Shown one piece after another: positions 4,508 to 51,183 of a DNA stretch of 64,000 nucleotides. The DNA lies in IMG/VR virus record IMGVR_UViG_3300021399_000108, positions 99,521 through 163,520 of that record. One strand, 5' to 3'. Both the position numbers and the translations under genes were made by a program. The notes under the pieces were generated by a model. It was not told where the DNA came from. It saw only the letters and a list, made by a program, of their open reading frames with translations, and ran no database searches. The stretch is from a virus. Its lineage: Duplodnaviria > Caudoviricetes. Position 1 is the first letter of the stretch; each line of letters starts with the position of its first letter.

Positions 4508-5467
4508 ATGATATTTATTATCATAATTTTATTAGGTATTATTGTATTTTTAGGCTTAAAATTAAAAACAAAAGTTGTTATAGATAAAAGTGCAATTGAT
4601 GAATATAATTCCACCATTCAAGAACTAAAAATTTATTAGAATAATTTACATAATGAAATTGATAAATCTGAACAAAAGGCAAGTCAACTTAATGTATAGA
4701 TTAAGTCATTACAATAGGAATATCAATCTCGTTATACAAATTTAAATGAACATTTCGAGCAATTAACATTATCAAGAGAAAAACTGTTAGAACAAGATTT
4801 TGCACGACGTAAGCAAGATAAAGAACAAGCATTAGAAATTTTATCCGAAAATTATTCTAATAAAATAGAAGAATTATCTAAAAAATCTCATGAATTATAG
4901 GAACAATATAATAATTTTTGTAATGAGATTGAAAATAACATAAAAGATGAACAAGCTCGTTTTGATGCGCTTTTATCACCATTACAGCAATATGAAAAAG
5001 AGCAACAAGATAAATTATTTTATACCGTTCAAATACCAGAAGAATTTCGTGCAGATATTTAGTATTTATTAGTAAACATTGCTCCGCAATTAAAGCATCC
5101 AGATATTATTAATAAATTAATTTGGAGTGAGTATGTGCGACCATATCTTGATGCTGCATGTAAACGCATAGGCATTAATAATGAGCCTGGTATTTATAAA
5201 ATAACAAATATTAATGATAATAAAAGTTATATTGGTAAAAGTACCGATATTAAAAAACGTATTGCATAGCATTTTAAGGCCGCGATTGGTATTAGCACGA
5301 TAGCATGGCAAGCAGTTCATGATGCAATGCTTACACAAGGTTTATGGAATTGGTCTATTGAACCGGTTATTTATTGTGATAAAGATAAATTAAGTGAAAT
5401 GGAAAAATTTTATATTGATTTTTTTAAGACGCAAGAATATGGATTTAATCGTAAAAATGGAGGCTAA
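4508..5467 (+). CDS. Membrane-anchored coiled-coil protein with C-terminal GIY-YIG nuclease domain (TAG read-through)
   Basis: N-terminal hydrophobic helix; open to TAA 5467 if TAG is sense; GIYKITN...SYIGKS...KRI..H motif. Confidence 0.8.
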
Positions 5468-5469
5468 TA

Positions 5470-5763
5470 ATGGAATTCAAAGAAATAAAATTTATTAAAG
5501 ATTGGCTTATAGCATTAGTAAAAAATGATAATAACTATGTGATAATTCTTGGGAAAGTTGGTAAAATTAAATTTTAGACAGAACAAGATACTATATCAAT
5601 ATCATCAAAGTATTATGAATTAATGGATGATATTATTAAAAGTATATCAAGCAAAATTGAAATTCCTCTTATCGCACATAATGATAAATTATTTACAATA
5701 ATTAGTTTAAATAATGAACAAGAATATGAAACAATTAAAACTGTATTAGAGGTAATATTATGA
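5470..5763 (+). CDS. Hypothetical protein (one internal TAG)
   Basis: SD GGAGG, 97 aa, ends in TGA overlapping the next ATG. Confidence 0.65.
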
Positions 5764-6116
5764 GTGAAATAAATTTAACAAAAGAACAACTATTAGAACG
5801 CTTTGCAGAAGCACAAAATGTTTCCAAATAGGAAGCTGAAAAATTAATTGGTGGAGAAACAGCAGAAGATATTCTTAAAAATATCAAAAATTTCACCAGA
5901 GAAAAAATTCAAGAACAAATGCCTCCTATGAACCGCGCGCAACGACGTGCGTGGCTTAAAAAGCATAAAAAGCGAATTAAAAGTACAGCTGAAACAATTA
6001 CTGATACGGCACAAAAATTAAATTATATTAGTCTTATTAAAAAACTACGAGAATTAAATGAAAAGAAAGAAAAGGAGAATGAAGAAAATGAGAACACTGC
6101 GGAAAGTAACTTATGA
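5760..6116 (+). CDS. Hypothetical protein (one internal TAG), NRAQRR motif
   Basis: ATG 5760 with SD GAGGT; same frame as ORF 5919-6116. Confidence 0.7.
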
Positions 6117-6318: not shown

Positions 6319-7122
6319 ATGAGTGAATTAAATAATAATATTTTTATGCAAAATGATGGGCTACAACCCCTTCAAGAGATTGTACAATCAATTATGGAGT
6401 TTAATGATGTTTCTTTAACTCCAACCTTAGTAAATAATTTAACTGAATCTATAAATTCTTTAATGACTCCATCAATGAGAGAGAGCACTATCGCGGCAAT
6501 TAAGGATGATTTTGATAAACGACAAATAAATAAAGCAGAAGTAAATCAGTATTATATTAATTTAAAAAATAATATTGCAACTTTAATTAATGAATTAAAG
6601 CCTTCACAACAAAAATTAGCTTTACTTAATTCAGTATTTGATCCAATGATTAGTATGGTTGAAGAAGTAGTACGTACTTATCATGTATATGATATTGTAC
6701 TTCCAATGACTTTAGATGAAGGTGCACAAGAACCTACTTATGCTCATGAAACAGACGCCGCAGCAGACTTATATGCGGCTGATACCGTTGTTCTACCCGC
6801 ACACTCTATTAGTAATATGGTAAGAACTGGGGTTCATATTCAACTTCCAGAAGGTTGGATTGCTATGATTTTCCCACGTTCAAGTATTGGTTCTAAGACT
6901 GGACTTCGATTAAGTAATTCAGCAGGAATTATTGATCAAGAATATCTTGGCCCACTAGGTGTACTTTATGATAACATTTCGGATTCTGATTATACTATTA
7001 ATAAAGGCGACCGTATTGCTCAACTTATGGTTATGCCAAGTTATCATTTTAAGGCTAAAATCGTTGATAAATTAACTCCTACAACACGCGGAGAGGGCGG
7101 TTTTGGTTCTAGCGGAAAATAA
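6319..7122 (+). CDS. dut: Trimeric dUTPase with ~125-aa N-terminal extension
   Basis: AAADL, PRSSIG, GIIDQEYLG, GDRIAQL, RGEGGFGSSG (motifs I-V). Confidence 0.95.
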   Translation: MSELNNNIFMQNDGLQPLQEIVQSIMEFNDVSLTPTLVNNLTESINSLMTPSMRESTIAAIKDDFDKRQINKAEVNQYYINLKNNIATLINELKPSQQKLALLNSVFDPMISMVEEVVRTYHVYDIVLPMTLDEGAQEPTYAHETDAAADLYAADTVVLPAHSISNMVRTGVHIQLPEGWIAMIFPRSSIGSKTGLRLSNSAGIIDQEYLGPLGVLYDNISDSDYTINKGDRIAQLMVMPSYHFKAKIVDKLTPTTRGEGGFGSSGK

Positions 7123-7868
7123 TGCCTATTAATATTTATACTGTCACTAACCATTTAGAACAAGAAGGTTGGAAATTAATTAGTGACAGTTATAAAAATT
7201 TAAATACAGAATTAGAAATGTAGTGCCCCAAAGGGCATCGCCAATTGCAAACATATGCTAATTGGCGTAAACATATGATTTGTGAATAGTGTATGGCTGG
7301 TGATCCATATAAAATTAAAAAAAATAAAGTACCAATCAAAAAGATTGATACTACTAGAATATTAGCATTAGATGCGGCAACTGGAATTACCGGATATGCA
7401 ATTTTTGATGATAATGAATTAGTCCATTATGGAACATATAAGGTAGATAAAGAACAGACAACCGAAAGTCGTATTAATAATGTAAAACATTGGCTTGCTG
7501 CGGCTATTAACGAATGGCAACCTGATTTTGTTGGATTATAGGCGATACAACTACAAAGTTTCGGAAATAATAATAATTATCAAGTAGAAACTTATCGTGC
7601 GCTAGCTAATTTACAAGGCGTCTTAGTTGATACAATCTTTGAAGCCTGTATAGATCATGACCTTGTTTATGCTACACAATGGAGAAAATATTGTGGAGTA
7701 GGTGAAGGAAAAGGACGAGAAAATAAGAAAAAACAAGCACAAGATAAAGTAAAATTATGGTATCAACAAGATTGTACTCAAGATGAAGCAGATGCAATTT
7801 GTATTGGAAAATATTTTTGCCATATTTTAAAAAATAATAAATCAAGCTGGGGTGAAGATATTGATTAA
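7122..7868 (+). CDS. ruvC: RuvC-like Holliday junction resolvase with N-terminal zinc-binding domain (3 internal TAG)
   Basis: TAATG coupling with dut; CPKGH...CE*C; ILALDAATGITGYAIF, WQPDFVGL*, DEADAICIG. Confidence 0.85.
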
Positions 7869-8296: not shown

Positions 8297-10882
8297 TTAA
8301 GAAATGCTGCCACTATCTTTATCACACTTAAAATAACGCGTATACGCTGCAGTTCCATTAATATAAAATACTACTGAACCACTATAATTACTTCCTCGTA
8401 CTGCGCTATCAAAATTTAATTTTGTACTATCAGTTACTTGTGAACCCGAGATAGTGCCGCCACTAGGATATAAAGCACAAGCAGTTACTGTTATTTGCCC
8501 ATTGCCACTATACTTTATGGAAGTAATATGAGCTTTAACTCCACTGGCCGTATTAAAAGAATGCTTACTAGTGCTCCCATCCGGATTATACCATCGGATT
8601 GTAACATAAGTTGAACCAGTAACACTATAAATCGTTCCTCCTGTAAACCATAAACGGCCACATCCATTAATTTTATCAGCCGTTAGAGCACCATCTTGTG
8701 TAATAGTTAAACTTGCATCACTATTACTCTACCAGACAGTAGCTGTTCTATTATTATATTTATTACGCCAAGTTTCTGATGGTACCCAAAGAACTAAATT
8801 ATTAAAAGGAATAGTTTTAGTAGTATATCCAGTAATCTTATCGTCATCATCTAATATAGGTACTTTAACAGTTATACTTCCCTAAGAATTTTTTGCAACT
8901 GTAGGAGCTAATACTAGTGAAGCAGGATTGTAAAATAATCCTCCTTCCATTGACCAACCGCCTACTTGTCCAGAAGCTGCCTTTAATATCCCATCTTTTC
9001 TAATATAAAATGGTGCATCATCAGGTTTAGCTGCGCCCGCCCAAAATGCATAAGGTGCAGTATCTACAAGTAATTTTTGGCCATTTATAGGATCAGTATA
9101 TGGACTTCCATCTCTATGATAAAGTGCAGTTTCCGAGCCAGCATTAATAGCTACAAATGTAGTATAAACACCATCCTGTACAGCAGAATCTGCCCATAAT
9201 TTATGATTATCAATATTCCATGCACCAATACTACCACCGATAGCATCAATACGGCCTTTAATATTTAAATTGCCATCTTCTGGATCAGCCCAAAATACAC
9301 GTTCATTTTGTAAGTTTCTTAAAATAAAACCATCCCAACTTACTTCTACACGTTTAATTTCTTGTACTCCTAATAATTTACTATTTTTATTTACTTCTTC
9401 ATCATCTAGTACAGTAATATAATCGGTTTTAGCTTTATTTAAAATTTTTGCGCCTTTTTTCATTATTAATGATAAACCTTCATCATTAAATAAGACATAT
9501 TGTTTCCCATCTATACTTTCACTTGGCTAAACATCTGCACCACTTGGATGTTCGCCATTATTTTTTTTATCAACAATAATACTTTTATACGCAAAAATGC
9601 CATCACCGTTCATTTGAAAACGTAAATTATCACCAGAGTAAATACGAATTAAATTAGTATCTAACTGGCCGCTAGTAATTAAATTTGCATTTATACCTTC
9701 AGGGGTAATACCAGTATTCCATTTCCAATTACCTTCAGCATTTTTTTCAGTAGAAGTAAAAATACCACCACCTCTAAAAGCAACTACACCTGTATCACTT
9801 GTGCCCCAAATACCATTATGTTCGTCAATTGTTAAATGCCCATTATTAAAAGCATAATCTAAATCAACTTTCATAATAGAAGTTTGTAATACATCTTCTG
9901 ATAATTCTCCTGAAGCAGTAAATGCAGAAGAAGCAACTTCTAGTAAACGATTATTTTTTTTCATCTATTCTGTTTGTGCAGTAATTGTAGAAAATAAATC
10001 TTCAAATTTTGTTTTATAATTTTTAACTTCAATAACATCTTCATCAAGATTATCTAGATCTAAAGTAATCCCAGAAATATATCCTTGAACATTGTGAAAT
10101 TTTAAATCTTCATCGTTAATCCTTACGATATTACCCATTTGATTATATAAACATTCACAATATTTAGAATTTAAAACATTTGGTTTAACTTCGTATGAAA
10201 CTTTAGGCACTGAATTTTCTTTCGCAATTTCTACCGCATCTAAATAAATCGAAGTATCAGCATTAGAAATAGAGTATTTTATCATTGCTTGACGAGCTTC
10301 TATATTTCCACTATAAGAGCCCGTAGCACCTTTTGTCGCCACCATTTCTGGATTTAAAGTAATTACGTATTGTTCGTCTAAACTACGTGTTAAAACTGAA
10401 TAATCCTCATACGGTTTTAAAGTAATATAGTTAACCACTTGATTCTTATTATTACTATCACTAGCTACATCGTTATAATCCTAATATTTCATAACTAAAG
10501 AATCAGAATCAGTACGCACCTTTAATGACTTAATAAAAATACGAGGATACACAATTTTATCAGTATTATAATTAAGTTGCAGCCAATCTGTCTATCTTGT
10601 AGGATACTATTCATTATAATACTGAATAGTAATTGGTTCTGATTTAAAAGTAACAATATTATGATGTGTGATATCATCCACCCTAGAGGTGATTATACCA
10701 ACACGTCCATGTGCGCTTTCTGTAATAACACGTTCTCCTTCAACCCCTTCACGATTAATACCAGTTAATACTAAAATAGGTATTATACGATTATCTTTTT
10801 TTACAAATTCTATTTTACACCCTGAACCTAATGTTAAAATTCGTTCAGAATGAATATCTAATTCATCTATACTTGTAGGCAT
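8297..10882 (-). CDS. Tail tip protein, C-terminal Tal-like part plus spike/fibre region (861 aa, TAG read-through)
   Basis: Four ORF-track fragments in one frame separated by TAG; PKVSYEV, KNYKTKFEDLF, WNTGITPEGINANLITSGQLDT motifs; own SD AGGAGG. Confidence 0.8.
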
Positions 10883-10894: not shown

Positions 10895-13800
10895 TTACGT
10901 GTTTATTGGTGGGAAATAAAAGTATTGGGAAACAACTTGGCCCCAAGGGTTTGCAGCATATAAATAAAGATGGGCTGCTAACCCTGCGCCACAATAAATT
11001 GTGTTACGAACTATCCTAATAGGACTATTTTGAATACCAATTTCAGTAACATAAGGTTGATTATTTTTTGCGTCTGTAGTAGTATAAACTGCATATAAAT
11101 TATTGCAAGTTAATATTTCACCATTAATTGACTCAAAAGGAACAATAGTCGCAGAAAGCCTGCCACTACTTCCAACAATAGTAGTAGTACTACCACCACA
11201 TTTCCAAATAATTTGTTCTGGACTAACTGAAGCTAAATTTAAAGAAAAAATTCGTTCATCATCTGCGTGTATTTCTACAGGTTCAGTTAAAGTAGAATCC
11301 GCATTTTGATAATCCCAATGAATTATTTTGTTAGAATCGTAAGTAGGAACAATATTATCAGTGCTAGCCACATAATTATTATTTATATATTCAGGGCCGC
11401 TTTGCCGAACAATAATTGAAGCTATTTGATCCTATGATGTAATTAACATATTATTATCATTAATATTTGGCTGAAAGATCAAAGAATAATTAATTTTAAT
11501 ACGATAGAGTCTATCATTACTAGTATTATTAACATTAACTATATTATTATTATCTATTATTAGTTCATTAAGATTAATTAAACTAAAACGTAGATTTGCA
11601 GAAAAACAAATATTACCATTTATTTCTTTATAAGTAATATGATCTATTTCAAATAATATATTTTGATTATTTAATGTTATATTTTTATTTGTATCTGAAA
11701 TTAATTCTAAGATAGCGGAAACACAATTAATCATAATTTGATTATTATTAATAATATTAGTAATATTTTGTTCTCCAATCAAAGCTTTAGAAATTGAAAA
11801 ATTAATTGTACCAATTTTTACTGCCGTATCTCGTGCGATAGCCCACCATTGTGTTAAACTCGTCGCGGTTACTACAAGTGGATAAGTCACCTTTAAAGAA
11901 GAATATCCTGTTTCTGGAATTATTAAAGTATTTACAGTGAAATTTTTACAAGTACATTTAATCTGTGTTCCATTATCTCGTAAATTATTTGCTGTATCTG
12001 CCATTAATGGTATACGGATTGTTAAAGTTGTTCGATCAGATAAAAATGTTGCAGAATATCTAGCATCTGTAGTAGTAGCATTAATATTATCATTATTTAC
12101 AGTTAAATTAATAGGCGTAGATGAACCCGCTGGAATAATCGTCCAAGTATACTCTAATGCATGGTTAACTTTAATAGTAATTGTTTTTTCATTATATTCT
12201 TGTCCATTTTGTCCATCTGCTTTAAGCAATACAATAGAAGGCGATAATAGTTCATTTGCATCAATAATCTCCATTGGCGTAACAAACTGTATAGCATTAG
12301 TGAATTTATACCAATCAGTGTATCCATTTGTGCTAGTACCAACTCTACCACGGATAAACTTGCCATTTAATAATGTATGTATAGTACTAATATTTACATT
12401 ATTAGCTACAGTTAATGTTAATGTAGACTTACTTTGTGTTGAAGAATTAGATTTTTTATTTGTAGTATTACTTAATGTTATATTATTACCACCAGTTGTA
12501 TTATTTAAATAAGTACTTAAATCCTACCAATTATTCGTGCCATTTGTACTAATTTGCCATTCTGCAGCTAAATTATTATTTAATGATGCTAATGCTACTT
12601 CTGAAGTTAAAATAAATTTTAAAAGTTTTTGCGCAGGATATTCTATTGCTGTAATTGACTCTTCATCTATAGTAGGAATAATCCAAGGCGCAGTATCTCG
12701 GCCATAACATATGAATGGTTCTCCTAATATTCCAGCAGCATTATTAACATAATGATTAAGATTTTTAACCACCAAACGTATATATTTAGTTGAACTATCT
12801 TGAAATAATGTGTCAAAAAAATTACCATTAGTGTTATTTATTTGTAAAGTATGCGTAAAGATATTATTATTACTTTCTTTATTAATTGTTATATTATTTT
12901 GATAAACAGAATTAATATGTGGGGTATCTTCTTGCCCTTCATAATAATCTAAAATTGTTACAGCATTATTAAAATTCTAATTATTGCTTATTTGCCAGAT
13001 ATAGTGATTTGTACTCATATCAGAAATATAATTATTAGAAACTTTATAACTTAAACGTAAATTATGATTAATATTATTTTTAATTACAGTCTGTTCATGT
13101 AAAGAACTTGACGCATAATTTATCGAACTATCAGATAATGCCCGAATATGTGTAGAATCAATTATATTTGATTCATTATTATTTTCATCATATTCAATAT
13201 TCGTGCCAAGTTGATTACCAGCAATCAATCGCACCGTCCAATTATATAATTTTTGATTAGTTGTACTTACTAATTGAATCGTCGAACGAGTTAAAGCTGT
13301 TGAATTAACTAAACGAACATTGTTTTTATAGGCTGCTATGTTAGTAAAAACATATTTATCTGTAGTATTATTTGCTGAATGTGGTTCAATAGATTGAGTA
13401 ACATTAAACCACGATCCATTATCATTATTTTTTGCATACCAAACATAATAACTAAATTCCTATTTTCGTTCTGGAGATATACTATAAGTTAAAGTACCAT
13501 CATAAGCTCTTAATTTATTATTAGAATTTAAAAAATTTTGATAATCTTGAGGTAAATTACTAATATTTAAATGCACAGTTCCATCAGTATTGTTATCCCA
13601 TTGGTATAAATTTGGAATTAACACAATCTACGCCACATCATTATTGCTAGTAGTTGGTTTTCTCCTTGGATATGGATTATCTTCATTAGAGGTAATTGGC
13701 TTATATACAAAACTAATAGGCTATTTATTTTCTACTATCATTTTTAAAATATCGGGATGCTTACTTAAATCAATACAAGGATAAGCTTGTTTATATTGTG

Positions 13801-15865
13801 CTGCTGTATATTCATAATATATATCTTGTTCTCCTTCAAATAATTCATCATCCCATTTGAAATAAGTATTTTCAGTAGAACCATCAACAGGTTTTAAATC
13901 ACTTAATTTAATTGTAAATCTTTCATTATATTGATCGCCATAATCAGTATAATCTTCAGGTTGCCAATAACCTTCACGTAAAGCCGGTCCCATCAATGCA
14001 TTAAAATTTTTAATAGTATCAGCTTTTTCTTGCAATAATTTTTGATATTGTTTCTCTACCGCAACGTCAAAAAGATTAGCTACATTAATACCACGTAAAT
14101 CTTCTTTTGCTGAAGTACCATAAAGGCTATATTTAATACGCGCAAGTTCTTGCTATAAAGATTCACGCCGTGCTTCATCTTCTGCCAATTTATTTATCCA
14201 CATATTCACGATACGATCATAATATAATTTAGGACGATAATCATAAGTAATATAAATTGTTTTTGACTCAATAGCATCATCATAATAAATATTACTAACT
14301 CGTATTACTTCGCCTGCTTCATCAAATTGAATTATTCCAGTTTTTATTTCTTCTTTTAAAGTAGAAGACTTATAATTATAAGTTCTATATAATTTGATAG
14401 TTTCAGGATATACGCCTTTTTGAGTAATTTTAACATAATATGTATTATCCGTATTAGCACCAGTATCTTTTAATAATACAGCAGTTTGTGGATGGTCATT
14501 ATCTACAGATAATACTTCTGTACCATTCGTAATCGCTTTTAAAAGAGCTTCATTGTTAAGTTTTTGTTCCATATCTAATGCAATTGAATTTTTACAAGTT
14601 GTTAATTCTGCCTATAATTTTACTAATTCAGATTGTAGAAAAATTACTTTTGCGGCAACAGGTGTAATTTTCTAATTAATACTACGTATTTTTAATAAAT
14701 AATCTTCTACTGCATCATATTGTTCTTTAGTAATACCACCAATTTTATATAAATAATCAAAATTTAATATATAATCTTCTTGACTTTTATTTGCGCCAAC
14801 ATCTATAATAGTTAAAGTACCGGTATCATTATCTATGTTTTTTACATATAATTTTGTAACTAAATCTGTACTGTCTAAAGAACGATTAATACTATTTGTT
14901 TGATATGGATAAGTAATATCACTTAATCCATTTTGTTCGTTTAAAAAATTATTATAATAAACGACAGTCCGCCCAATGATATGTCCAATTTCATCATGTT
15001 CATAAACATATTTACAAAATACTCCAAAAGTCTATGCTAATGTTTGAGTAATATTATAAATATTACTATCAGATATGTCAATACTAACACGAGCTTTTTC
15101 ACGAGCATAAGTAATATGAGATGGAACTAATTTATTGTCTTTTAGCTTCCATGCATCAATAAAATCCTATTCATAAACTTTATTTGCCGCACGTTTATGC
15201 ATCTATATAAAAATATCATTTGCGGTAGTATAGTCTTCTAATACGCCTTCTGTTTCTGTTCTTGATAAAGAATAATTATCCCAATTCATTTCAATTTTGT
15301 ATTTCCAATTACTAATAGTGCTAAATACTTTATCATTCCAATAATTTAAAGTCGCTAATGGTTCTATTGTTTGAATATTACCATATCCATCAGTCCATTG
15401 TCCGTTCGTTGCCCAATCATAATCATCATTATAAAAATCTTGAGCAGATAATGAAATTTTATATCCAATTTTACCTAATTCATGAAAGGCTAAACCTTCG
15501 CATTCAACTTCACAATATAAGCTATTGTCTACATCATGTTTTTCTTTTACTTTTACAATTAAAAACTAATAAATTTTTTTATTCTAATTATCTTTATTAA
15601 AGATAACTTTTATTTTTCTCATATTAGTTAATAATGCACCAGATTCCACATTATACCAACTTGGATTAGGAATTTTTTCTCCCTCTTTATAATAATACAT
15701 GGGAATGGTAAAAGAAAAAGTTTGTGTCCCATCATCACGATCGGTTAATTTACCATTTTCAATTTGTCCTTTAAACTATAATCCATATTGCTTCAGGATA
15801 GCAATAAAGCTATCCTGAAGACTCCATAACGAAACTTCATAATCACGGGTTCGTCGTTGAATCAT
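10895..15865 (-). CDS. Baseplate hub / Tal-like N-terminal part with long beta-rich (Ig-like) extension (1656 aa, TAG read-through)
   Basis: Six ORF-track fragments share the frame from ATG 15865 to TAA 10895; position downstream of Dit; repeated Y.W..S.....W units. Confidence 0.75.
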
Positions 15866-15883: not shown

Positions 15884-18800
15884 TTATAAATATAAATTTT
15901 TATATATTATAATAAAATTTTGTAATGGTATATCACCATCATATGTAACTTTATGACATAAAGTCCGATCCTATTCTGACCAAGGTTTAATTTTATTAGT
16001 TATTGGCTAAAAATGATTTTGTTCTGAAAATACTAATTCATTTAGTAAAATCATATCGCCTATTGATTCATTAGTCGTATGTAATTCATTGTATCGTAAA
16101 GAAGATAAATAACAAATTTCTTTTGGGTCATTTAAATTCTATAATATGCCATGCGGCCAATTAATAGTATTATAATTAATCTTCATTTCATATTGCCCAG
16201 TTGCACAATCAATACTTATTGGACATAACTGATTTATTGTAGGACTAACAGCTTGCGCGCGTAATCCTCTTGGTACAATATTTCCCATTAATTTAGGCGT
16301 TGACATTAAAGATGCAGAGCCATTAGGTGTTCCTGAAATGCCTTGAAGCGAAACTAAAGTTAATTTAAAATTATTTATTACAGGAAAATTAGATGGCGTA
16401 TACATTCTACTAGAATTAACTCTGTTATCACTATAACCAGTAGCTCCGCCTATATTGCCCGGCCAAGACGTAGTGCCGTTTTGTTTTAAATAATAACTCA
16501 ATATTTCTAATGTAATTATAGCATCACTTGCAAAATGTTCAATTATAAACTATTTTTCGTCATTATTTGCCCATGTCTCCTCTATTCCTAAAACAGTATT
16601 ATTTTGACAAATACGAACTTTAAATTTAAACTATATAGTAGATGGAAATGACATTTTTAATTTTAACTTAATTTGTGAGTATGTATTAACTACCGTTATA
16701 GGAAATTCTAAAATTGTTTGCCAAGCATTTATATTATTTTCGTACTTCTTTAAACATGTATTAACAGCGTTTTCAGTAGTGGTAGACGTTGCCAAAGGAC
16801 CGATATTATCGACATAATCATCATTATCAGCATCCGGCTATAAAGTCGGCGCTGTACCACTACCTATCCAACTATTATTATTATATGTAAATATATAATG
16901 GACATAACAATCCTCTATCTTCTCATAAGCAGCGCCAGATACAGATATCGTCCCATTCGGGGTATTAGCAGTTCCCGAATATTGATAATAATGTAAACAA
17001 GGCCATGTCCAGGACGCGTCAGGACTTTTAAAGTTTAAAATTGATTTATCAATATCTTCAATTTTACTTGTTTTTATAATAATAGAAATTGTAATTGGAG
17101 TATTTTCACTACTATATGTTTTAGTAGTATCATAAAGATCTGTTACTTTACAATAATATTTCATATTATTATAAATATTAACTAAATTGCTTGTGCTTGT
17201 TGCTGTTAATTTATAAGTATTTGAATTATTATTAATAGCTGTTGTTTGTGCATTTTTAATACTATACCAAGTAATTTTAGAATAATCCCCAGTAATAGTA
17301 TATGACAAATTACGTGTCCAATTATTACCAATAGTAATTTCATTACCATTTTGATCTTCTAATATATTTAATTTAGTATAATATGTCCAATTAATAATAC
17401 TTCCTTGTGGATTACTAATTGTTGGTATTATTGCAACATTTAAATAAATTGCTTGTGAATTATCAGGATATATCCGAGTCTATATTTCATTTGAAGGAGT
17501 TGTAACAGTAATTTTAACCTCACATTTATACCAACCTTGATTATTTTTAGTTAAAGCATTATTAAAAGTAAAGGTATTAATTATATTAGTATTAGTAACT
17601 TCATAAATTTTAGTTGCGTTAGACCAATCTGGCTCGCTTGTAGTTTGTATTATTTTATTAGTAAAATACCAACTATAAGTAAAACTATAATCTTGTGCAG
17701 ATGGTGGAACTCTAGTTTCGTGAGAAACAGATAATTTAATTCCTGAATCTCCTGCATATTGCTAAAAACTAGTTTTTCCATATTGAATGACTGGTAATGT
17801 ATTTAAAAAATCATCAACTTCTTGATCCATTTCTGAGGGTTCTAGCTATCGAATAATAATAGTTTGATTGGTAGGCAATGTAAGAGTTTCATCGTTATTT
17901 CCTCCCGCAACAAATCTAATTTGATGATTAAGATCATTCCATGTTTTACTAAAAACCCATTGCAGTTTTGCTTCTGTTGCTTTAATAGTAGGCTGCGCGA
18001 GAGAAGTGGTAATTTTAGTCCATTTATTACCACCATCACTTGAGACCTAGAATCGACTTTTACTTGCAATCATATCTTTCATGCCAGTAATAGATATAGT
18101 AATTGTCGACCCTGCACGAATCGGTATTGGCTTATCAAATGAAGTAACAGCTGGTGCAGTATAAGAGTCTAATGTTGATGACACTGACACTAAAGGATTA
18201 ATTGCCTCTAACCGTTTTAAGTTCATAGTAATTAAAGGAGAATCAATATAACTATTACTAGAAGTTTTATTTACTGCATCAATTTTATATAAGCGTATCT
18301 TAAATGTAGTGTTACGTAAATTTTTTCCTGCGACTGACTCCAATGCAGTAAATTGAAAACTAATACTTTTTTTATTTGTAGCAACTGTTAATTTACCATT
18401 TTGAATTTGACCATTATAGTTATTAACATTATTACTACTTGTTTGTGTAGATCCCCATAAAGTTTCCGTACCGGTACCTTTAGGGTAATAATATAATTCA
18501 GGATAATAATATAATTGTGTAGAAGCATCATATTCTTCTAAAAAATTACCAACAATATTCCAACGTAAAGTACTTGAGCCACCTTGATTAAAAGTAACAC
18601 TAGATGATGCAGCAGTAATGGTAATATTACTATTTAATTGTTTTATCTATAAAATTGTTGCTGTTCCTGTATAAGAAGTACTATTACTTACAATACAACG
18701 TAAATACACTCCATAATCTTCTTCTGTAACATTTAAACAACTTAAAGTTCCTGTTTCATCATTTATCGACCATTTATTTTCTTCATCAAAAATTAGGAAC

Positions 18801-35800: not shown

Positions 35801-37035
35801 TTTTTAGCAGCATCTTTTACTCCACGTTTTACTAAACTTAAAACTTGAGTAAAGCCCATAAAGTTCATTACAGTAGATTTAATAGCATTAAATGTATTTT
35901 GCATTTGTTGATATTTCAACATTGCAACATTTGCTTGCTCTAATTGAGATTTAAATTCTTGTAGTTGGCTCGCTGCCGCGCTCATCGAAGCAGGAATTTG
36001 TTTAATAGCACCATTAGCATTTAATGTGCCATTTTCTAAATTTTGAATAGCACTAACTAAAATATTTATATCAGAATTAAATTGAGTAGCTTGCGCACCA
36101 GTTGCTCCAAAAGCTTGACCTAATTGAGTGAAATCAGTAATATTAGTTTGGACATTACCTATTATATTAGACAAATCAATTTTTTGTACTTGTTGCCCTT
36201 GATTTACTTCTTCCCAAAAATTAATAGAGCCTAATATATTTTGAATTTGTTTAGCTGTTTTATTTCTTAGCTATTCAATTTTATTATCTGGTATATTAAA
36301 TTGCTATTGCATATATTGCAAAAATTGTTCTTGAATACCACCGCCTTTAATGCTCTTAAATATTACATCTCCATTTTGTTTAGTAGAGAAGAATTTCTTA
36401 AAAGCCGCTGGATCCAATAATCCAGATAAAGTATCACCTGAACCACTATCTACTTTGCTCTGAATATTTTGTGTTTTGGTCATTTGTTCCTATAATTTAG
36501 CATAAGCCTCTTGTAATTGTTGTAATTCAGATTCCGCGGCTTTAACACCATCAGAAATACCTTTAACAATTTCATCAAAACTTTTATTAACTAAATCAGG
36601 ATTAATTGCCTATAAAATTTGTTTATTACTACCCTGAGCAAGAGTATCTTTTACCATTGTTTTTTGAAAATTCTCATACTAATGACGAGCTTTTTTCAAA
36701 TCATCTACTAATTTACTATATTGATCTGTTGTTGCTTTATCTAATTTTAAATCAGAAAATGTTATACTTTTAGTAATATCTCCAGTTTTAGATAAAGCTG
36801 TACTTATTCGTTCTATAATTTTTTCAGTTGCCTTAAAATCCGCATTACTACTAAAACCTTTTGCTATATTAGTCTATACTGCACCTAAATCTTTTGTCAT
36901 ATTTTTGACAATATTTTGTAAGGCGGTAAATGCTTTTGTATCTGGTTTCAAAGTATTTAATACTTTCTGTATATCATCAACTGAATTTTTCAACATTTCT
37001 AACTCAACTGATATTTTTACAGTGTGTTGACTCAT
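20881..37035 (-). CDS. Giant tail tape measure protein (~5384 aa, many internal TAG)
   Basis: Eleven ORF-track fragments share one frame from ATG 37035 (SD AGGAG) to TAA 20881; TMP core motifs IYYQQG, NIGSALKSI, AGNRQQSRF; C-terminal GELGPEL and GGLVDYTG. Confidence 0.85.
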
Positions 37036-37097: not shown

Positions 37098-37098
37098 A

Positions 37099-37989
37099 TT
37101 AAATCTCAGCATCTATATCTGAGTCTAAACGTGTCATCTATAAAATTAATCCTTCTTTATTGGATCCTAAATTTTCTGGCATCCCAATAATATTAAATAC
37201 CGACATTGTAGGATCAGCCTTTTCTCCCAAGCGTAAGTTGATGTCACTCACTACTCTTACTTTTGGCATATAAATTAAATTTGTATAATTTATACCCTCA
37301 TTTTCATCTTTAGAATAAAATTTACCTTCTAAAGAGAATAACCCATTAAATCTTTCTTTTTGTATACGGTATATTAATGCATCTCTATTTTTAGGATATT
37401 CATAATAATATTCAATAATATATTCTGCATTAATATCTGCTAAAGATTCTTTACTTAATGTTTTATCATCATACACTTGAATACAAGGTAATTCTTGTTC
37501 AGAATCCCAAGGATCAATTTTTCCATGAATGCGTTTACCATACATTTTTTTCTATATAGTATCACGCGAATATTTATAAATAAAAGCTTTTTTCTTTATT
37601 GTATCTACAGGCCAATTCTTTAATATCATACAATGATCTTGATCCAATTGCATTGGGCCCTCTCTACGTCGTACTAATAATTCATCTTGACCTTTTTTTT
37701 CTAGAACATCTGCACTTAATAAGATACCCATTCCAACAGATGAAAGTACTCCTTCAGATAAAGAAAAAGTGACTTCAGAACGATCCTCCCACACAACTTG
37801 TGGGAGGTTCGCCCATCCGCCACGCGCCATAATTGGCGTATTTCTTTCAGAAAGAAGTGATATATTTATATTTTCAAAATATAAAATAGGTTCATCTACT
37901 TCAATATACCTTGATCCAAAATGCATAGGAGTTCTAGCTTTAAGCACAACTTCATATAACTATTTTATACCAAAGTATTGATCTTGCAT
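37099..37989 (-). CDS. Tail-tube-like protein, paralog of the major tail protein (296 aa, 3 TAG)
   Basis: FGIK*LYEV, ARGGWANLPQVVW and ADPTMSVF mirror YGIKEVANV, AQGGWGNPRLIQW and GDPSTFEM in the neighbouring tube gene. Confidence 0.75.
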
Positions 37990-38001: not shown

Positions 38002-38913
38002 TTAAGTACCAGTAGAAATGCTACCAATATCATCCTTATCATTAGTACTAGCTTCATCGGCAGTTCCATAACGAACTAATTTCATCATCTCATCACCGCT
38101 TTCGCCACGTAGAACATTTAGAGTCATTTCAAAAGTAGAAGGATCACCTTCGGCTTCTAGAGTTAAAGTGACACTGGATTGAACTTTTGCACGGTCGATG
38201 ATAAATTGGAAAGGTTCATCCTTACCATTCTGGTTACGCATAAAAGTATCACCAACAATACGATAAGTTCCAGGGAAAGTATCGGGGCTAATAGTTACTT
38301 CAACTGCACCAGCATCCGCAGTACCGCCTTCGCGCTCTTCTTCCCAGAAAATACGTAAATGATCACCTGCTACTGCAGCAACATTATTAACATTTGCAGC
38401 ATCATTAGTAACGCTCACAACACGACCTTTTTCAAACGTACCGCTAGTGATCTGAGTACGTACACCAGTAGTTAAATTAATAACACGAACAGGATGTTCA
38501 GTAGAAGCAGTAAATGTATAAGGACCACCAAATCTGTCTTTAATATCAGGTAATTTTCCACCAGTACCACAAACTACTTCAGCTGTGTGACGTACTAATA
38601 CCTTATCTTGACTAGTGGCTTCTTTAATAGCGCCGCCCATCATAAAACGAAGAGATTCTAAAGACATTAAAGCATCAGTTAAGGTGACATTAATTTCCTT
38701 ACCATAGTCCCACTGAATTAAACGAGGATTTCCCCAGCCGCCTTGTGCAGCAACATTTTCAGCGGTAGTTTCAATTGTAGAAACTTTTAAAGTATCAAGG
38801 AAAAGTACAATATCTCCTTCAAAAACACCTTGTGTTAGGTCAGTTTCTAAGGCTTCAAAATATACATTTGCGACTTCTTTAATACCATATTTTTCAAAAA
38901 TATTAACAGCCAT
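38002..38913 (-). CDS. Major tail tube protein (no TAG)
   Basis: GIKEVA, LDTLK, GGWGNPRLIQWDYGKE, FPGTYRIVGDT, EGDPSTF motifs; position; SD GGAGGT. Confidence 0.8.
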   Translation of the reverse strand: MAVNIFEKYGIKEVANVYFEALETDLTQGVFEGDIVLFLDTLKVSTIETTAENVAAQGGWGNPRLIQWDYGKEINVTLTDALMSLESLRFMMGGAIKEATSQDKVLVRHTAEVVCGTGGKLPDIKDRFGGPYTFTASTEHPVRVINLTTGVRTQITSGTFEKGRVVSVTNDAANVNNVAAVAGDHLRIFWEEEREGGTADAGAVEVTISPDTFPGTYRIVGDTFMRNQNGKDEPFQFIIDRAKVQSSVTLTLEAEGDPSTFEMTLNVLRGESGDEMMKLVRYGTADEASTNDKDDIGSISTGT

Positions 38914-38929
38914 AAAAATTACCTCCAAA

Positions 38930-40206: not shown

Positions 40207-41403
40207 TTACCATAATGGAATAATTGAAATATTTTTAGTATAAGATATACCATTATATTCAGCAGTTATAATACAATCACCAAGAATATTTTTATTATTT
40301 GCATGAACCTTACACTCATTGTTCTATTGGCTCATTACCTTCGCTAATTTAGTATTATTAATAGTAAAATTAACTTCTTGATTAATTTCTTCTGTGCCAA
40401 TTAATTTATAAGTTGCATCACGATCCAATCTAATAGATGCAGGTCCTTCAATATATGCAGAAAAAATCTCTTCTGCTCCAACAGTAACTTGTAAAGTTTG
40501 ATGAATAGTAGGATAATTAATCAAAGTAATTATAACATTTGCAGTACCATTACCAACCGCAGTTAATTGTCCATTAACTAATTTAATTACTTCTTTATCA
40601 TTAGAACTAAATTGTACTGGCTAATCAATAGGAATACCGTTTTTAGTTAAGGTAAAAGTAGGATTAATTATATTACCAATAGCAAAATTTTGTTTTTCTT
40701 CTGGAATTGAAAGCTCATAATTAGCAATTTTATCAGTATCAGCAATATTGTTTTCAACATCATCATATATACTATTTATCTTACCTTCTGTCAAAGAAAG
40801 ATAAATTACTCCTGGCACACTAGTATGATCATATTCTACTACTGTCCAAGACTCTTGCTCTACAATAAAATTTGTAGCTCTATCTATTGGATAACGCGGC
40901 ATTAAAATTTCAGCATATTTATTTGGTTGAGGAGAAATTAAACTATTCCAAGTTCTAAAATTTCCCTTAATTTTACTATCTAATGAACTTACAAAGTAAC
41001 TCCATGACTGTTGAACATGTCCATTGCTATCTACCCATTTCATTAAATAGTTACACCGCACAATCCAAAAAGTACGATAAGTGCCATTAACTTTTTTTTC
41101 TTCTTGTATAATAATCCATTTTTCTTCTGTACCATTTTCTAATGGCCAAGTAATAATATCTCCAACTAATAAAGGCGTTTCATTACTTACATTTAAAAAC
41201 ATAATCTTTTGATATTCTTTATCTTTACTAGTTAAAATAATACTATCAAAATGTATGCCTCGTTCTACTGACAGATCTCTTACCGTATGAGGAGATTCTG
41301 CCATCCATTTATAGAAAGATCTAATTCCACCATTTCTAATACGCTCGGCAGTAGACTCACCCATATGATTAATGCGCGAATTATATACTTCAAAATAATT
41401 CAT
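40207..41403 (-). CDS. Putative head-closure / neck protein with C-terminal Ig-like domains (398 aa)
   Basis: GDIITW, RCNYLMKW, PGVIYL motifs; read-through of TAGs at 40621 and 40324 to TAA 40207. Confidence 0.65.
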
Positions 41404-41662
41404 CGGGTTTATTTAAAACGCCTACAAGATTCATACACTAGAAAATTGTTTTTCTAAAATAATCATAATTTAGACGTTTTAATGAATTTAATTTACCAAT
41501 CAAAGACCAATAATTAATTGAATTCGCGCCAAGACCTTCTAACTAAATTATAATAGATTCTAAAAATTTTTCCCATTCGCCATTCTTTTCTTTTTCACAT
41601 AATACACCATATAGGCGGCCTTTCATCTTTCTTTTATAACCGTCAAATGTTTCATTTGACAA
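41390..41662 (-). CDS. Small conserved neck-region protein (90 aa, 2 TAG; absent from ORF track)
   Basis: TTG start; EWEKFLESIII*LEG...YFRKTIF*CMNL; overlaps both neighbours. Confidence 0.65.
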
Positions 41663-42122
41663 TATTGTTTTTTCCAGCTAGTTTTCTAAACAAGTTTGCT
41701 GGTCGTTTAAACCGTGATCTGTCATAAATTCCTTCTGCATGTTGCACTTCAAGTGCAATCGCTGCTTCTAGTTTATTTAATTTATCAAGATGATTAGCTT
41801 GTGAAAAATCTTTATCCGCATATAATTGACGAATATTCTACCAACTTGCAATACATCGCTTTACCCACTCATGTTTCATATATAATGCAAGCAATTGAAT
41901 CTAATCATTAGTTAAATCTTCAGTAAATTGGTATACACTATTTTCATCAGTACTTTCCTCAATTTCTAATGAGACACGAGGATATTTAAACCGAAAAATT
42001 GCCATCTTTAAAAGCTACCGCCAATCCCGCTCTACGATTGCCAGTTCTTCTTCTAAAGTCCATTCATCGGCAGTAATTCGAGCTAAGAATGCATCGTACA
42101 CTTGTACGAAAGGAGTAGCCAT
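41652..42122 (-). CDS. Head-tail adaptor-like protein (156 aa, 3 TAG; absent from ORF track)
   Basis: MATPFVQVYDAFLARITAD...DLTND*IQLLALYMKHEW...KDFSQANHL; TAATG coupling. Confidence 0.75.
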
Positions 42123-45647: not shown

Positions 45648-47198
45648 TCAACCCATTGACTAAATATTAGCCTGAGTTTTTTCTGATTTTTGTTCATCAG
45701 GAAGTTCTGGACGCCCTCCTGTATTTGTTATGTCTCGTACCTATTGACGAGATATTGTATTTTGCGCTGATTTTCCAGAATTATTTTCTTCATTTGCAAT
45801 TGTATTACCGGAAGTAGTATAAGAAGATTGTAATGGTATCATCTTTGTAGACATCTTTAAGAAATCATTTTCAAAGTTCATTAAGCTTAGTTGATCCATT
45901 TGTTTAATGCCCATTGCTACGCCAGCAAACATCTTAGAATATCCGTATTGCGCGCCACGGAAATAATTCTGTTGTAACTCTGAACGATTAAAAACAGTTA
46001 AGGGCAAAATTTCAAAATCAAATGTTAAGCCTTTACGCGAAAACTTATCATTGATTAAAAACTTAATCCAACTCTAATAAATATTAAGATATGCTAACAT
46101 TAATGTTTCATCTTTTTTAATACTATAAGCCAGAGAAGAACTATTTGTCGCGCTAAACAAAATCTCTCCTCTACCTAATGCATCCCATGCATTCTTCTTA
46201 TATTTTTCAATACGATCAGCTGATTGACTCGCCGCAGAACTTTCTTGCAGACTTTCTAAATCAGTATCACCAAAAGTAGTTAATACATCAACAGTATCAG
46301 TATCTTTTAGCATCTATGCGACTGATGCATGAATATCAGCGACTTCATCTAATTGAAAAACTAATTCACCATTACTTCCAATTGGCATTTTTTGAATTAA
46401 TAATTTATATAATTCATTTTCATCGCGCTTTTCTTCGCGCCCTACTGCATTTTCTAATTTCTTTAGCTAAGGAATACTAGCTACTAATAATGGAGTTTGA
46501 TCGTGCGCGAAACAAAAACATACACCGCCAAATTCAGGAGTAATAGCAACCCATTCATCACTTGTTTTTCCACCAGTTTTCCGCCAAGCTTTTTGTACAA
46601 TAGATGGAAAAGTACGAATAACTTCTTCACGTTGCTTATCATCACGTATAGTTAAAAAATACGCTAGATTAAACTCTAAAATGTTTAAATTATTAAAGTC
46701 TTTGAAACGTGTGCGGCAATATTCAATCGGTAAATCTTGTAATACAACTTTGTTGTCAATAGTCCTTAAAATACCATAATAAATACCAGTAATTAACCAC
46801 TATGTGGTCACATGTGCTAGTGTATTTGGTAAATCAAGTTTATCTATAAAATCACACGCGGAATAGAATGCTTTTAAGATTTGTGCTTCTGAACCCTTAC
46901 CTTCTTGGAATACTGGTACTACCACGCTATCGTATAATGGTAAATGCGCGAGAAAATCAATATTGTTTCTATAATTACCATTAACACGATAATAATAACG
47001 TGATAATTCGCGTAGAGATGCTAAATCACCTGAACGAATGATGCGTAAGATTTCATCGAGTGTAAAATCCTATGCAACAGGATCATTAGTATATCCATAT
47101 CTACCATAATAGGAGCGACGGCCATTTATAGGGGTGCGACTACGCTCAAGCTATAAACGGAATTGCTTAAAATCTCGTTTTATATTTTCTTTTCCCAA
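45648..47198 (-). CDS. Portal protein (516 aa, TAG read-through)
   Basis: Follows terminase; LRELSRYYYRVNG.Y, LPIEYCR, KMIPLQSSYT and GGRP C-terminus; fragments in frame. Confidence 0.8.
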
Positions 47199-47203
47199 AA
47201 TTA

Positions 47204-48985
47204 TCACCCCCTCTTTTTCTTAGGACTAAAAAATATATACTAACTAAAATTTTTCTTTTTCTTACGGTAAGTTTCTTTATCCTCATAATATTTAACTCGA
47301 TATAATAAATACTATAAAGCACTAAATCTATCTTTTTCAATTGAGCGAGAAATTCTATCTATTTTAAATTGGTTTTTCTATCCGGTGGGTTTTAATTTTA
47401 AATTATTTAATTCATCAATTAAACGTGATGTCATTTCATAAGGTAATAAAAATACACGTCGATCATACAGGGTCATTTTTTGACCTTTTTTAGTTGTTAA
47501 TAATTTATCTTTAACAATACGTTCATGTGCTAGTAAAGATACAGCACCACTATTAATTTGTGAAAAGAAATTAGAATGTATAATATCATCATTACCTATT
47601 CCAGCTTTAATATCATAGATAATTGCATTATATTCTGATCTAGGCTCATCACTAGGATTATTCATTTCTGGCGGCAAATGATGATCATTATTAAATACAT
47701 AATATGCTGGGAATGTCTCACCTGTTTTCAAATCTATGGAAGGTAAAACCATAGCGTCAAGTAGGCCAATTCCAGGTCCATTTCCATCTATGACTATTTC
47801 CCGAGGATGATATAACTATACTAATTTTTTAATTCGCGGTGCTTGCTAAGTAATATAATTGGCGCCATGAATAACTTCCGTATAAATAATGTGCTTTTTA
47901 AAACCATTATTTATAGGCAAAATTTTCCCTACCATGACAGCAGTATTTGCTGAATAGCGGGCAACATCAACACCTATCATATAAAACGTGTTAGGGTTAA
48001 CAGGATTCTATTGCGCTTTTCGCTCACATTTTAATAAATTTCTTCGTTTATTTAAAATTTTTGAATCAAGCCATGCCTACTTATTGTTCCCAGTCCAAAT
48101 ACTGAGGTTTTCTCTGGAAAAGGAATCATCACTTACAGTAGAAGAATAGCGCTGATCTAATAATGTAGATTTATCAAGAAGTCCATAGTGTAACGGTACT
48201 TCGTAACTCATGCCCCAAGAAAAATACTACTTTGGCCGCAAAACCGCATTAACAGTTATCTCAATTAATCTACTATACATATACACGGTACGTTCACGTG
48301 CAGTTGTAATAAATGTTTGTGGAGAACTAGGTTCATCAAGATTAATAGTCCCATCTACTTCTCTCCGCTTTACGTTCATTTGCGGCAATAATACCTCTGT
48401 ATATGGTTCTTCTTCGATTGTCGCTGCTTCTTCTAATATAGCCGCGGTTGCACGTAGACCACGAGATGTATCCTTAGAAACAACAGTGATTATGCTGCCA
48501 TTCTTGAAATATAGTTCGTAATAATTATTACTGGACTTAATACCAGTTTTTCCATCATCTGCCCTAGTCGATAATTCTTTTCGTAGCAAAGGCCAATGTC
48601 GAAAAATTTCTTCAAATTTAGCTTCTGCAATTTTAATAACTGTGCCTTTAACATCAGAAGCAATCATGATATTAGAGCCTGGTAATAATACGGCCCGACA
48701 TACTGAACTTAAATATGCGGTAAATGATTTAGATGTTGCACGGGTTGACGTCCAGAAATGATAGCGATAGCGCATACTCGCGCGCAAAGCAATTCGTTGA
48801 TAAGGTAAGAGGTGGAAATGTTTTGCATCCTAGGAGTCTTGAATTGTATCTAAAAAGGCATCAGGATATAATATCCAAAAATTTAGATATTTAGTAAATA
48901 ACTATTGATTATGGTCCAAAAACTATCTAGTTAATACGATGCCTTTCTATATCGGAATTCCGTTTTTTAATACTGCCTCATTCAT
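47204..48985 (-). CDS. terL: Terminase large subunit (593 aa, TAG read-through)
   Basis: RATSKSF Walker A variant, RGLRATAAILEE Walker B, IGVDVAR, IDGNGPGIG, KDRFSA nuclease motifs. Confidence 0.9.
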
Positions 48986-49916
48986 CTAATTCCTCCTCTA
49001 ATTCATCTCCCCCTTCATATTCAATATTATCGTTACCGTCATCTTCTAGTGCTTCATTTTCAATTTCTTCTAAACGCTACGTCATATTATAACGAGCTTT
49101 TTTATCTTCAACCTGTTCGGCAAAATTACCCTCATTGCGCACTAGCCGCTGTAAATAATTTTGAATATTTTCCATCATAAAATCAATTGAATCTTGTGGT
49201 TCAGTATGCCAATTAGGATGCCAACCTTTTTTGCCATAATAAACCATAAGCTAACCCACAGACTAAAAGTCTGCCGCGGATTTCGCATTAGAAGCTTCAA
49301 ATTTAGCAATCTTAATAATATTATCGCGCGCGTCCATATCTTTTTTTACATCCATATTTTCGCGCAGACCTTTTTTAATACGTAATTCAATTTCGCAAAG
49401 ATCGCGCGCGTAATTTTGGAGAATGGGAGTTGATACGTTTTGAGTCGCAACAATTTGATTATAATAATTGTCTAACCATAATAACTATTCTTTTTTATAA
49501 GAGGGCGACCAATCTTTTTTTAATTGCTTTAATTTGGCCGCGCCTAATGCTTCAATTTCTTCATCAATTGTTTGTTCTTTTTGGGCAAGATGCCAGCGTT
49601 CGTTCTCATCTGCCCATTGCAAGGCTTGATAATGGTCATCCAATAATAAATTACAATAGGCGGTTAAGGTATGATCTTTATGCGTCTAATACAAAGACGT
49701 CCACTTATTTAAATCAAATGGTATATCTAAATAGCGGCATAATCTATCTACTTCTCCTAAACTATCTTGTGCAACCATTGTTTCTAAACAATTAATACAA
49801 ATTAAAGAATGATGTTGAGGGAAAAATTTGCTAGGAGTTCGCACAAAATCACTTAGTGGTTTTATTTGTTTGCATTTCAGGCATTTCCTTGATGTTGTCT
49901 TTTCTTCTTCTATCAT
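48978..49916 (-). CDS. Zinc-finger protein, candidate terminase small subunit (312 aa, TAG read-through)
   Basis: CLKC...CINC, LCRYLDIPF; SD AGGAGG; immediately upstream of and overlapping terL. Confidence 0.6.
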
Positions 49917-51183
49917 ATAATGTTTGTCCTCCTTTTGCAATTCGTCTTAATCTTTCACATTCTTTACAATTAGAAGCCCATCCGTCTTTTCGTCCCGCAT
50001 TGCGCCCAAAGAATAAGGGATCACGGGGTAACATTTTGCCGCAACGGAAACACTTCTTTAATTTTGAGTCGGGAGTCTATACCAGAATGCGGGCTTTTTT
50101 CGCTGCGGTCGCGATTGCTTTTGGAAGAGTACGCGCCATGATAGAACTTAAATGATTTTCATTATATACTAATCCAAACCTAATTTCTAATTCTTTTAAT
50201 ATATCACTATAAGGTACATGTTGAATTTTTCGCGTTAATAGAAAGTCTTGTACAGGATTCAGATTAGCGAGCGCGCGATAACGTTCAAAGTCAAAAATAA
50301 AAGTACGCCCGTATGTCTAAATTCTTGTTCTAAAAGTATCATATAATAAATCATAATTATTAATTAAAGCCGCAACATGATGATAGTCTTCCCAATCAAA
50401 TGTGTGCTGGCGCACCACCCATTTTACGAATGTCCCCTGCTTCGTCACTTTTGACTCATAGTCATCTATATTTTTAGAAATAGTATGTAATAGCGCATTA
50501 TCCACTCGCTTTTGCCATTGTTCTAGCGGCATCCAATAAGCGCAATCTTGTGACCAATCAACAAATTGCGCATGAGGATGCTGCATGAACATAAAATGTA
50601 GAGTAGGCTTATAGGCATCTTTCAAATAATATTGGTGCCGCCGCAGATCAATTAACCAATGCTTTAATTGGTATAGGCGATAATCACTAGCTAATTCTGG
50701 GGTATCTTCGGTAGGCGCAATTTCACCCTTATAGGCCGCAATAATTTTTTCTAAATTATCAATAGAGTCCCAAAGTTCTACCATACCGGGTATATCACTA
50801 TCGCCCGCGTCAATTAGCTCGCCCGTCTTTTTATTATAGCGGGGCCGCACAATAGTGGGTTTAGGGACGGTGTAGGTGCGCCTCTCCGTCATATGTTTTA
50901 GCGCCAATTGATCCGCGCCCGGGTTTTCTAAAATTTCATCAAGCGACGCATTTTTGTCTTCTTTTTTGCGGTAGCTTTGGTATCGCGTATTATTTGTCAT
51001 TATTTCGCCACGTTTTGCGGCGTTTAAACCTTCTTCATCTTTGCCGTAAAGTATGTATGAACCCATTTGCTATAATTCAGCAGGTGCGGGATCATACTAT
51101 AATTTGTCTAATATATCTGTAACAGCGGCGACTCGGTCTACGTCGCGCTATATTGAATAATCTAAGGAATAATTTTTTTTCAT
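49849..51183 (-). CDS. First gene of the morphogenesis operon; putative DNA-binding protein with C-terminal zinc finger (444 aa, 4 TAG)
   Basis: SYILYGKD; fragments 50317-51066 and 49849-50034 in frame; CFRC...KDGWASNCKEC. Confidence 0.7.

Follow-up and report, generated by a model that had tools for sequence, protein, structure and literature searches.

Glutamate as the probable meaning of TAG in a phage with a tRNA-Glu-like amber suppressor

A late gene block open with TAG as a sense codon

The DNA described here belongs to a tailed phage (IMG/VR record IMGVR_UViG_3300021399_000108), and the stretch that was analysed, referred to below as the window, is the final 64 kb of one 163,520-bp contig (GC 32.7%; estimated completeness of the record 93%). 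Read with translation table 11, positions 4508-51183 of the window fall apart into a string of short open reading frames (ORFs). With TAG taken as a sense codon, as a first-pass annotation of the window had proposed, they resolve into full-length, tightly abutting long genes, and the large terminase (TerL), portal and tail genes are restored (Table 1). Here, we describe these genes, the evidence that supports glutamate (Glu) as the amino acid specified by TAG, and the candidate suppressor tRNA encoded elsewhere in the same genome.

Genes were called with TAA and TGA alone as stops, so that the ends of the 214 called genes (157 TAA and 57 TGA) follow by construction. The called genes of the whole genome hold 353 in-frame TAG codons, which are spread evenly along gene lengths and clustered in the virion block (2-96 per gene) and a few other genes, most early or replication genes having none. 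In the late genes (virion and lysis) and the few others, TAG supplies about one fifth of the Glu codons, and when it is counted as Glu the late genes contain 7.3% Glu versus 7.1% in TAG-free genes. At about 30% identity, the terminase resembles those of the recoded phage phAss-1 and of siphoviruses of the SPbeta-like, Geobacillus E3, Enterococcus H1 and Lactococcus 949-like kinds.

Table 1. Genes of the recoded block, in window coordinates
Feature	Position	Strand	Observation
GIY-YIG domain protein, 319 aa, 6 TAG	4508-5467	+	Pfam GIY-YIG, E 2e-8; open only with TAG as sense
RuvC-like resolvase, 248 aa, 3 TAG	7122-7868	+	Pfam RuvC, 20.5 bits versus cut-off 22.2
Tail/baseplate gene, 861 aa, 7 TAG	8297-10882	-	Opened by TAG as sense
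Tail/baseplate gene, 1656 aa, 15 TAG	10895-15865	-	Opened by TAG as sense
Tail/baseplate gene, 1662 aa, 21 TAG	15884-20872	-	Opened by TAG as sense
Giant tape-measure-like gene, 5384 aa, 96 TAG	20881-37035	-	TAG columns mostly Glu in relatives
Tail-tube paralogue, 296 aa, 3 TAG	37099-37989	-	Aligns with paralogue 38002-38928
Tail-tube paralogue, no TAG	38002-38928	-	Aligns with paralogue 37099-37989
Two small head/tail-joining genes	41390-42122	-	TAGs where Glu is strongly conserved
Portal-like gene, 519 aa, 8 TAG	45648-47207	-	Opened by TAG as sense
Large terminase (YonF type), 619 aa, 15 TAG	47204-49063	-	Homology to siphovirus terminases
320-aa gene upstream of terminase, 5 TAG	48978-49940	-	Conserved Glu at TAG columns
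444-aa gene, 5 TAG	49849-51183	-	Conserved Glu at TAG columns

The amino acid specified by TAG

A terminase search of viral contigs returned 76 related loci with 70-80% identity, in which every aligned codon was mapped, and four complete relatives were fetched: G001, which like the present phage is of the Glu type, and G003, G004 and G005, which are of the Gln type (Gln, glutamine). Across the 76 loci, the TAG codons of this phage face GAA (35%), GAG (10%), GAT (9%), TAG (5%), CAA (4%) and CAG (1%), a profile equal to that opposite its own GAA/GAG columns, while the TAG codons of the relatives mainly face its CAA and CAG. Glu is the majority residue in 25 of 46 TAG columns. This tabulation had been suggested in the first-pass annotation as a check on its claim of Glu in place of the usual phage Gln, and the Glu-like profile bears the claim out; the TAG columns are not dominated by Gln, nor do standard-code relatives carry Gln at these sites, two of the observations named there as contradicting it. 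Gln in homologues at TAG columns, by which NCBI code 15 is recognized, is likewise not what is seen.

For a quantitative comparison, substitution profiles were derived empirically from the sense codons of these genes and used to compute likelihoods for 199 TAG columns aligned with G003-G005. Glu explains these columns best, with Gln 154 nats (bootstrap 95% interval 105-205) and aspartate (Asp) 221 nats behind, and where G003-G005 agree with each other the residue is Glu in 30 columns, Asp in two, Lys in one and Gln in none. In the reverse direction, Gln is the best fit for the TAGs of G003, G004 and G005, 124-158 nats ahead of the next residue, and Glu for those of G001, by 185 nats. Relatives without in-frame TAG (about 4,000 aligned codons) have mainly Glu at the TAG sites (L012, E24/Q4; L046, E19/Q5; L059, E23/Q5), and in four cultured standard-code phages the TAG columns hold 24% Glu and 4% Gln, to be read against 34% and 8% in true-Glu columns and 11% and 22% in true-Gln columns.

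Single positions tell the same story. The sites listed as Glu-like in the first-pass annotation hold up at 20657 (1662-aa tail/baseplate gene; GAA in G003-G005 and TAG in G001), at 35791, 35515 and 35443 (tape-measure-like gene; Glu in all relatives), at 41438 (E38/43, that is, Glu in 38 of 43) and 41901 (E38/38) in the head/tail-joining genes, and at 47312 in the terminase (E60/65), 49263 in the 320-aa gene (E67/69) and 51070 in the 444-aa gene (E56/58). So does TAG 37960 of the tail-tube paralogue, which is Glu in 26/26 relatives and aligns to a Glu of the neighbouring paralogue, FGIK-TAG-L lying opposite YGIKEV in an alignment with an E-value of 1e-9. The portal site 45660 is the one that did not stand, being variable (A36 D15 E6). 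Further columns of this kind are 41543 (E41/43) and 41838 (E34/38) in the head/tail-joining genes, 46800 (E52/64) in the portal-like gene, 48947 (E62/66) and 48227 (E67/73) in the terminase, 49251 (E69/69) and 49077 (E63/69) in the 320-aa gene, and 51148 (E46/58) in the 444-aa gene.

Two enzymes place TAG at apparently catalytic positions. In the RuvC-like protein, D84, E/TAG140, D221 and D224 are invariant in five relatives and form D-E-D-D in the canonical order. Residue 140 (TAG 7539-7541), which follows PDFVG(L/I), is encoded by TAG in this phage and G001 and by GAA in G003, G004 and G005, in agreement with the Glu assigned to it in the first-pass annotation, and would be the putative catalytic Glu. 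Five codons further on, a CAA (Gln) of this phage is TAG in G003 and G004; both codes are therefore visible within six codons. The tetrad was equated with D7/E66/D138/D141 of Escherichia coli RuvC by motif and not by structure. Searches of the PDB with phmmer gave no useful match for the RuvC-like protein, the helicase or TerL, and a five-sequence RuvC-like profile gave none either, so the catalytic assignment rests on motifs and the sub-threshold Pfam match. The helicase is encoded outside the window (genome 6061-7437), and TAG stands at its Walker-B Glu position: motif II is D-TAG-C-D in this phage and G001, and D-E-x-D in G003 and G005.

Taken together, the assignment of TAG to Glu is supported because the codon-column likelihoods in both directions, the cultured standard-code homologues, the TAG-free relatives and the tRNA-Glu-derived tRNA-CUA described below all point to it.

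A suppressor tRNA of tRNA-Glu descent

No tRNA was found in the window. A loose tRNA pattern scan gave five matches, none of which is a tRNA. In the whole genome there are 14 tRNAs, among them one tRNA-CUA at genome 63845-63919 (Rfam tRNA, 56.6 bits), about 35.6 kb before the window start, in the remaining part of the genome where the first-pass annotation had advised looking for it. It has G1.U72, U11-A24, C12-G23, U13.G22, a 4-nt variable loop with A46, A73 and an encoded CCA. The identity set read by E. coli GluRS comprises an augmented D-helix with U11-A24, U13.G22 with A46, and no base 47; these features are all present in the tRNA-CUA and are invariant in its three variants. The anticodon is CUA and not the YUC of tRNA-Glu, exactly the change that makes a suppressor. 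The phage's own tRNA-Gln(UUG), to which the tRNA-CUA bears no likeness, carries U1-A72 and G73.

When a covariance model of the tRNA-CUA was searched against 121 Clostridia genomes, 28 of the best 30 matches were tRNA-Glu (22 CUC and 6 UUC), the top 24 without exception. Judged by these matches, the molecule descends from tRNA-Glu(CUC), from which it differs by an A in place of C36. The label 'Pyl' that ARAGORN gives to any CUA tRNA does not make it a pyrrolysine tRNA, which is ruled out by the tRNA-Glu descent and the Glu at TAG columns. Homologues occur in the Glu-type relative G001 and in contigs L146 and L218. Five pairs of the anticodon and T stems vary in a compensatory way among the three variants; their acceptor stem is nearly invariant (pair 7-66 alone varies) and their D-arm stem invariant. 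The gene looks like a unit of its own, to judge by a near-consensus sigma-70 promoter about 280 nt upstream and a terminator-like hairpin just downstream; a ribozyme sought at the gene was not detected. The tRNA-CUA of the Gln-type relatives G004 and G005 is not the same molecule: it has U1-A72 and G73, and its extra arm is long. The two reassignments therefore use unrelated suppressors.

Several other tRNA genes of this group are unusual. The Gln-type tRNA-CUA genes (L095:83-168, equivalent to G004 55157-55242, and G005 51768-51854) are 86-87 nt long and combine the tRNA-Gln hallmarks U1-A72 and G73 with a class II-like long extra arm, which is odd for a Gln suppressor. G003 (L126-L134) has about 190 sense TAGs, yet no tRNA-CUA is among its 17 ARAGORN tRNAs; the gene for its suppressor may be interrupted or of an unusual form, or the tRNA may come from another source. 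ARAGORN also reports tRNA-like genes with an abnormal anticodon loop (two-base anticodon) at genome 37796-37869, G001 57724-57796 and G004 64854-64925. In a metagenome-assembled genome (MAG) of the Acutalibacteraceae, G007, a phage-like tRNA cluster (L155; contig C51, 3636-3709) includes a tRNA-Glu(CUC) whose D-arm is almost identical to that of the suppressor, and which may be close to its ancestral form. A further contig of the same MAG with several tRNAs (L164; contig C133, 3309-3381) encodes a class I tRNA-CUA with G73 that probably comes from a different recoded phage.

Host, charging and alternative explanations

Contigs that carry relatives of the terminase were assigned by binning to two Acutalibacteraceae MAGs and one rumen Bacilli MAG, and these phage-like contigs give a weak hint that the host is a gut or rumen member of the Firmicutes, with the three MAGs as candidates. 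All three encode GlnRS (644-742 bits versus a cut-off of 426) and, with binned contigs as the link between MAG and host, all three also encode release factor 1 (RF1); GatB was found in the Bacilli MAG alone and not in the two Acutalibacteraceae MAGs. The first-pass annotation had also proposed a search of the phage for aminoacyl-tRNA synthetase or release-factor genes; no GluRS or GlnRS catalytic domain and no RF-1 domain was found in the phage genome (a record about 93% complete). With RF1 and GlnRS both present in the candidate host MAGs, the code looks phage-imposed.

We propose, with a probability of roughly 85%, that TAG serves as a glutamate codon in the late and a few other genes, most early genes avoiding it, and that it would be decoded by the phage amber suppressor tRNA, a tRNA-Glu(CUC) that carries A for C at position 36 and retains tRNA-Glu features in its acceptor and D-arm. 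Host GluRS most likely glutamylates this suppressor directly, and the charged tRNA would then compete with host RF1 at UAG; how expression is timed and which bacterium is the host are parts of the proposal that we infer.

Some observations weigh against this proposal. GluRS normally reads anticodon position 36, as is known from work on the E. coli and Thermus thermophilus enzymes, and the host assignment depends on phage-like contigs binned into MAGs. In a mixture model, the Glu class makes up 59% of TAG columns versus 81% of true Glu columns; ORF extensions upstream of true starts (39779, 39737, 41678 and 49046) explain part of this gap, and the remainder suggests that TAG tends toward less constrained sites. 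A Gln-like class accounts for 6.6% of the columns (bootstrap 0.6-11%) versus 2-3% in controls, an excess that overlaps zero. Finally, TAGs 23371 and 37552, already flagged as Gln-like or neutral in the first-pass annotation, lie at positions that are Gln in every relative, the Glu-type included (encoded as Gln or as a Gln-type TAG), the simplest reading being a recent one-step change of CAG to TAG, and hence of Gln to Glu.

A first alternative is an ambiguous code, in which GluRS charges some of the suppressor with Glu and host GlnRS charges the rest with Gln, and a substantial mixture of the two is inserted. GlnRS is known to mischarge amber suppressors; the candidate hosts encode it, the weak G1.U72 pair could favour it (to judge from work on the E. 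coli enzyme), and both the raised proportion of Gln-like columns and the two TAGs at universally Gln positions would fit. We nevertheless regard such a mixture as unlikely, since the Gln-like excess cannot be told from zero in the bootstrap, one CAG to TAG change each accounts for the two Gln sites, agreeing relatives give 30 Glu and no Gln, TAG is tolerated at catalytic Glu sites, and the tRNA has A73 in place of G73 and lacks U1-A72. Minor insertion of Gln alongside Glu may occur. To read TAG simply as Gln (NCBI code 15), the default of the literature and the code used by most relatives in the same family, is barely credible here: it is 154 nats worse than Glu, it would put Gln in place of an invariant catalytic Glu in two proteins, the RuvC-like one and, at motif II, the helicase, and the suppressor is unlike tRNA-Gln.

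A CUA tRNA of tRNA-Glu descent, probably the Glu-inserting one foreseen in the first-pass annotation, has been found, and what is not needed is the route proposed for its charging, in which a non-discriminating GluRS glutamylates the tRNA-CUA and GatCAB leaves it unamidated. U1-A72 is a GatCAB determinant in bacteria, and its absence from this tRNA, together with the presence of U1-A72 and G73 in the Gln-type suppressors of G004 and G005, would agree with such an escape. Genuine GlnRS in all three candidate host MAGs, the failure to find GatB in the two Acutalibacteraceae MAGs, and a descent from tRNA-Glu and not from tRNA-Gln, which makes escape from amidation unnecessary, leave it quite unlikely. 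Direct charging by GluRS is simpler because the suppressor is a tRNA-Glu derivative, the candidate hosts encode GlnRS, and a search for GatB came up empty in two of the three MAGs. Very unlikely, too, is a host that itself reads TAG as Glu, the phage merely adopting its code: RF1 is encoded in every candidate host MAG, no Glu-like tRNA-CUA was found in these MAGs or among the top matches of the 121 sampled Clostridia, and a suppressor of the phage's own combined with mostly TAG-free early genes is the pattern of a phage-imposed switch.

Three apparent codes in one phage family

By code, the 76 loci divide into 56 of the Gln type, nine without in-frame TAG, three of the Glu type and eight that are unclear, so that on present assignments the standard code, TAG as Gln and TAG as Glu are found side by side in one phage family. 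In the terminase tree, this phage forms a clade with L058 and L060 (SH-aLRT 80) that is sister to a standard-code pair (82). The Glu-type clade is nested in a family dominated by Gln-type lineages. One may ask whether, in a three-code family with unrelated suppressors, the Glu code acts as a device of genetic isolation or interference. We consider this doubtful, though it would have clear consequences: in cells infected by both types, the Glu-type suppressor would insert Glu at the Gln-TAG sites, hundreds in number, of its Gln-type cousin, and vice versa, and late genes could then neither pass from one lineage to the other nor be expressed correctly where the other lineage controls the cell.

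Other features of the genome concern gene calling and layout. The tape-measure-like ORF (minus strand, 5,384 aa) is very long for a 163-kb siphovirus-like phage, and just about two thirds of it can be aligned to relatives. On the plus strand, ORFs 49194-49385 and 49430-49795 are shadow ORFs of the true minus-strand 320-aa gene, despite tblastn matches in relatives, and automatic table-11 callers would misannotate them. Window positions 51457-64000 contain short genes, mainly on the plus strand and nearly TAG-free, which fits an early region under the host code. About eight small genes outside the window (including genome 9519-9707, 12938-13186, 13639-14052, 14252-14476, 18378-18758 and 78771-79136) have a lone TAG in their last few codons, with TAA or TGA soon after. 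TAG may remain the true stop of some early genes, the second codon being a back-up stop when the suppressor is present.

Comparison with known recoded systems

Gut phages with TAG recoded under code 15 include crAss-like, Lak, Garnet, Amethyst and other phages (bioRxiv 10.1101/2021.08.26.457843; PMC9523058), and in phages using a code other than that of their host Borges et al. found only TAG to Gln and TGA to Trp (bioRxiv 10.1101/2021.08.26.457843). Our literature search found no phage for which TAG to Glu is reported, the accessible papers assigning phage TAG to Gln. Pipelines and databases for recoded phages accordingly translate TAG as Gln (table 15), which would mistranslate about 350 codons in each genome of the present kind, catalytic sites included. 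Phage code switching has been proposed, from the observed cases only, to exploit GlnRS and TrpRS, and a GluRS-dependent suppressor would widen this set. The family would also offer closely related phages with three codes as a natural system for the study of codon capture, and a natural Glu-inserting amber suppressor tRNA from Firmicutes phages that may serve synthetic biology.

Like the code 15 gut phages, whose hosts apparently use the standard code, as the host of this phage may also do, it has TAG in structural and lysis genes, early genes that are largely TAG-free and its own tRNA-CUA; unlike them, it would read TAG as Glu, with a suppressor derived from tRNA-Glu. The same difference separates it from its Gln-type sisters (G003-G005, and the 56 Gln-type loci), with which it shares 55-58% amino acid identity genome-wide, gene order and the kinds of genes recoded, whereas their TAGs stand at its Gln codons and their suppressor, where found, has U1-A72, G73 and the long extra arm. 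The phage phAss-1 ('Phassvirus'), a distant relative only (terminase 31% identical), is also large, siphovirus-like and of Firmicutes type, with TAG in virion genes and tRNA-CUA genes of its own, and its authors assigned TAG to Gln (PMC10607447).

Reassignment of a stop codon to glutamate is otherwise seen in the nuclear code of peritrich ciliates (NCBI table 30), in which TAA and TAG both mean Glu. That code is eukaryotic and genome-wide and includes TAA, whereas here the switch is viral and TAA is the main stop (157/214 genes). The closest laboratory parallel is the E. coli tRNA-Glu body with a CUA anticodon, which, in work of about 1990 by Normanly, Kleina, Abelson and Miller, is said to be able to insert Glu at UAG; some engineered suppressors of this type reportedly inserted Gln. 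Those tRNAs were engineered, whereas the phage suppressor is natural and conserved in a phage clade.

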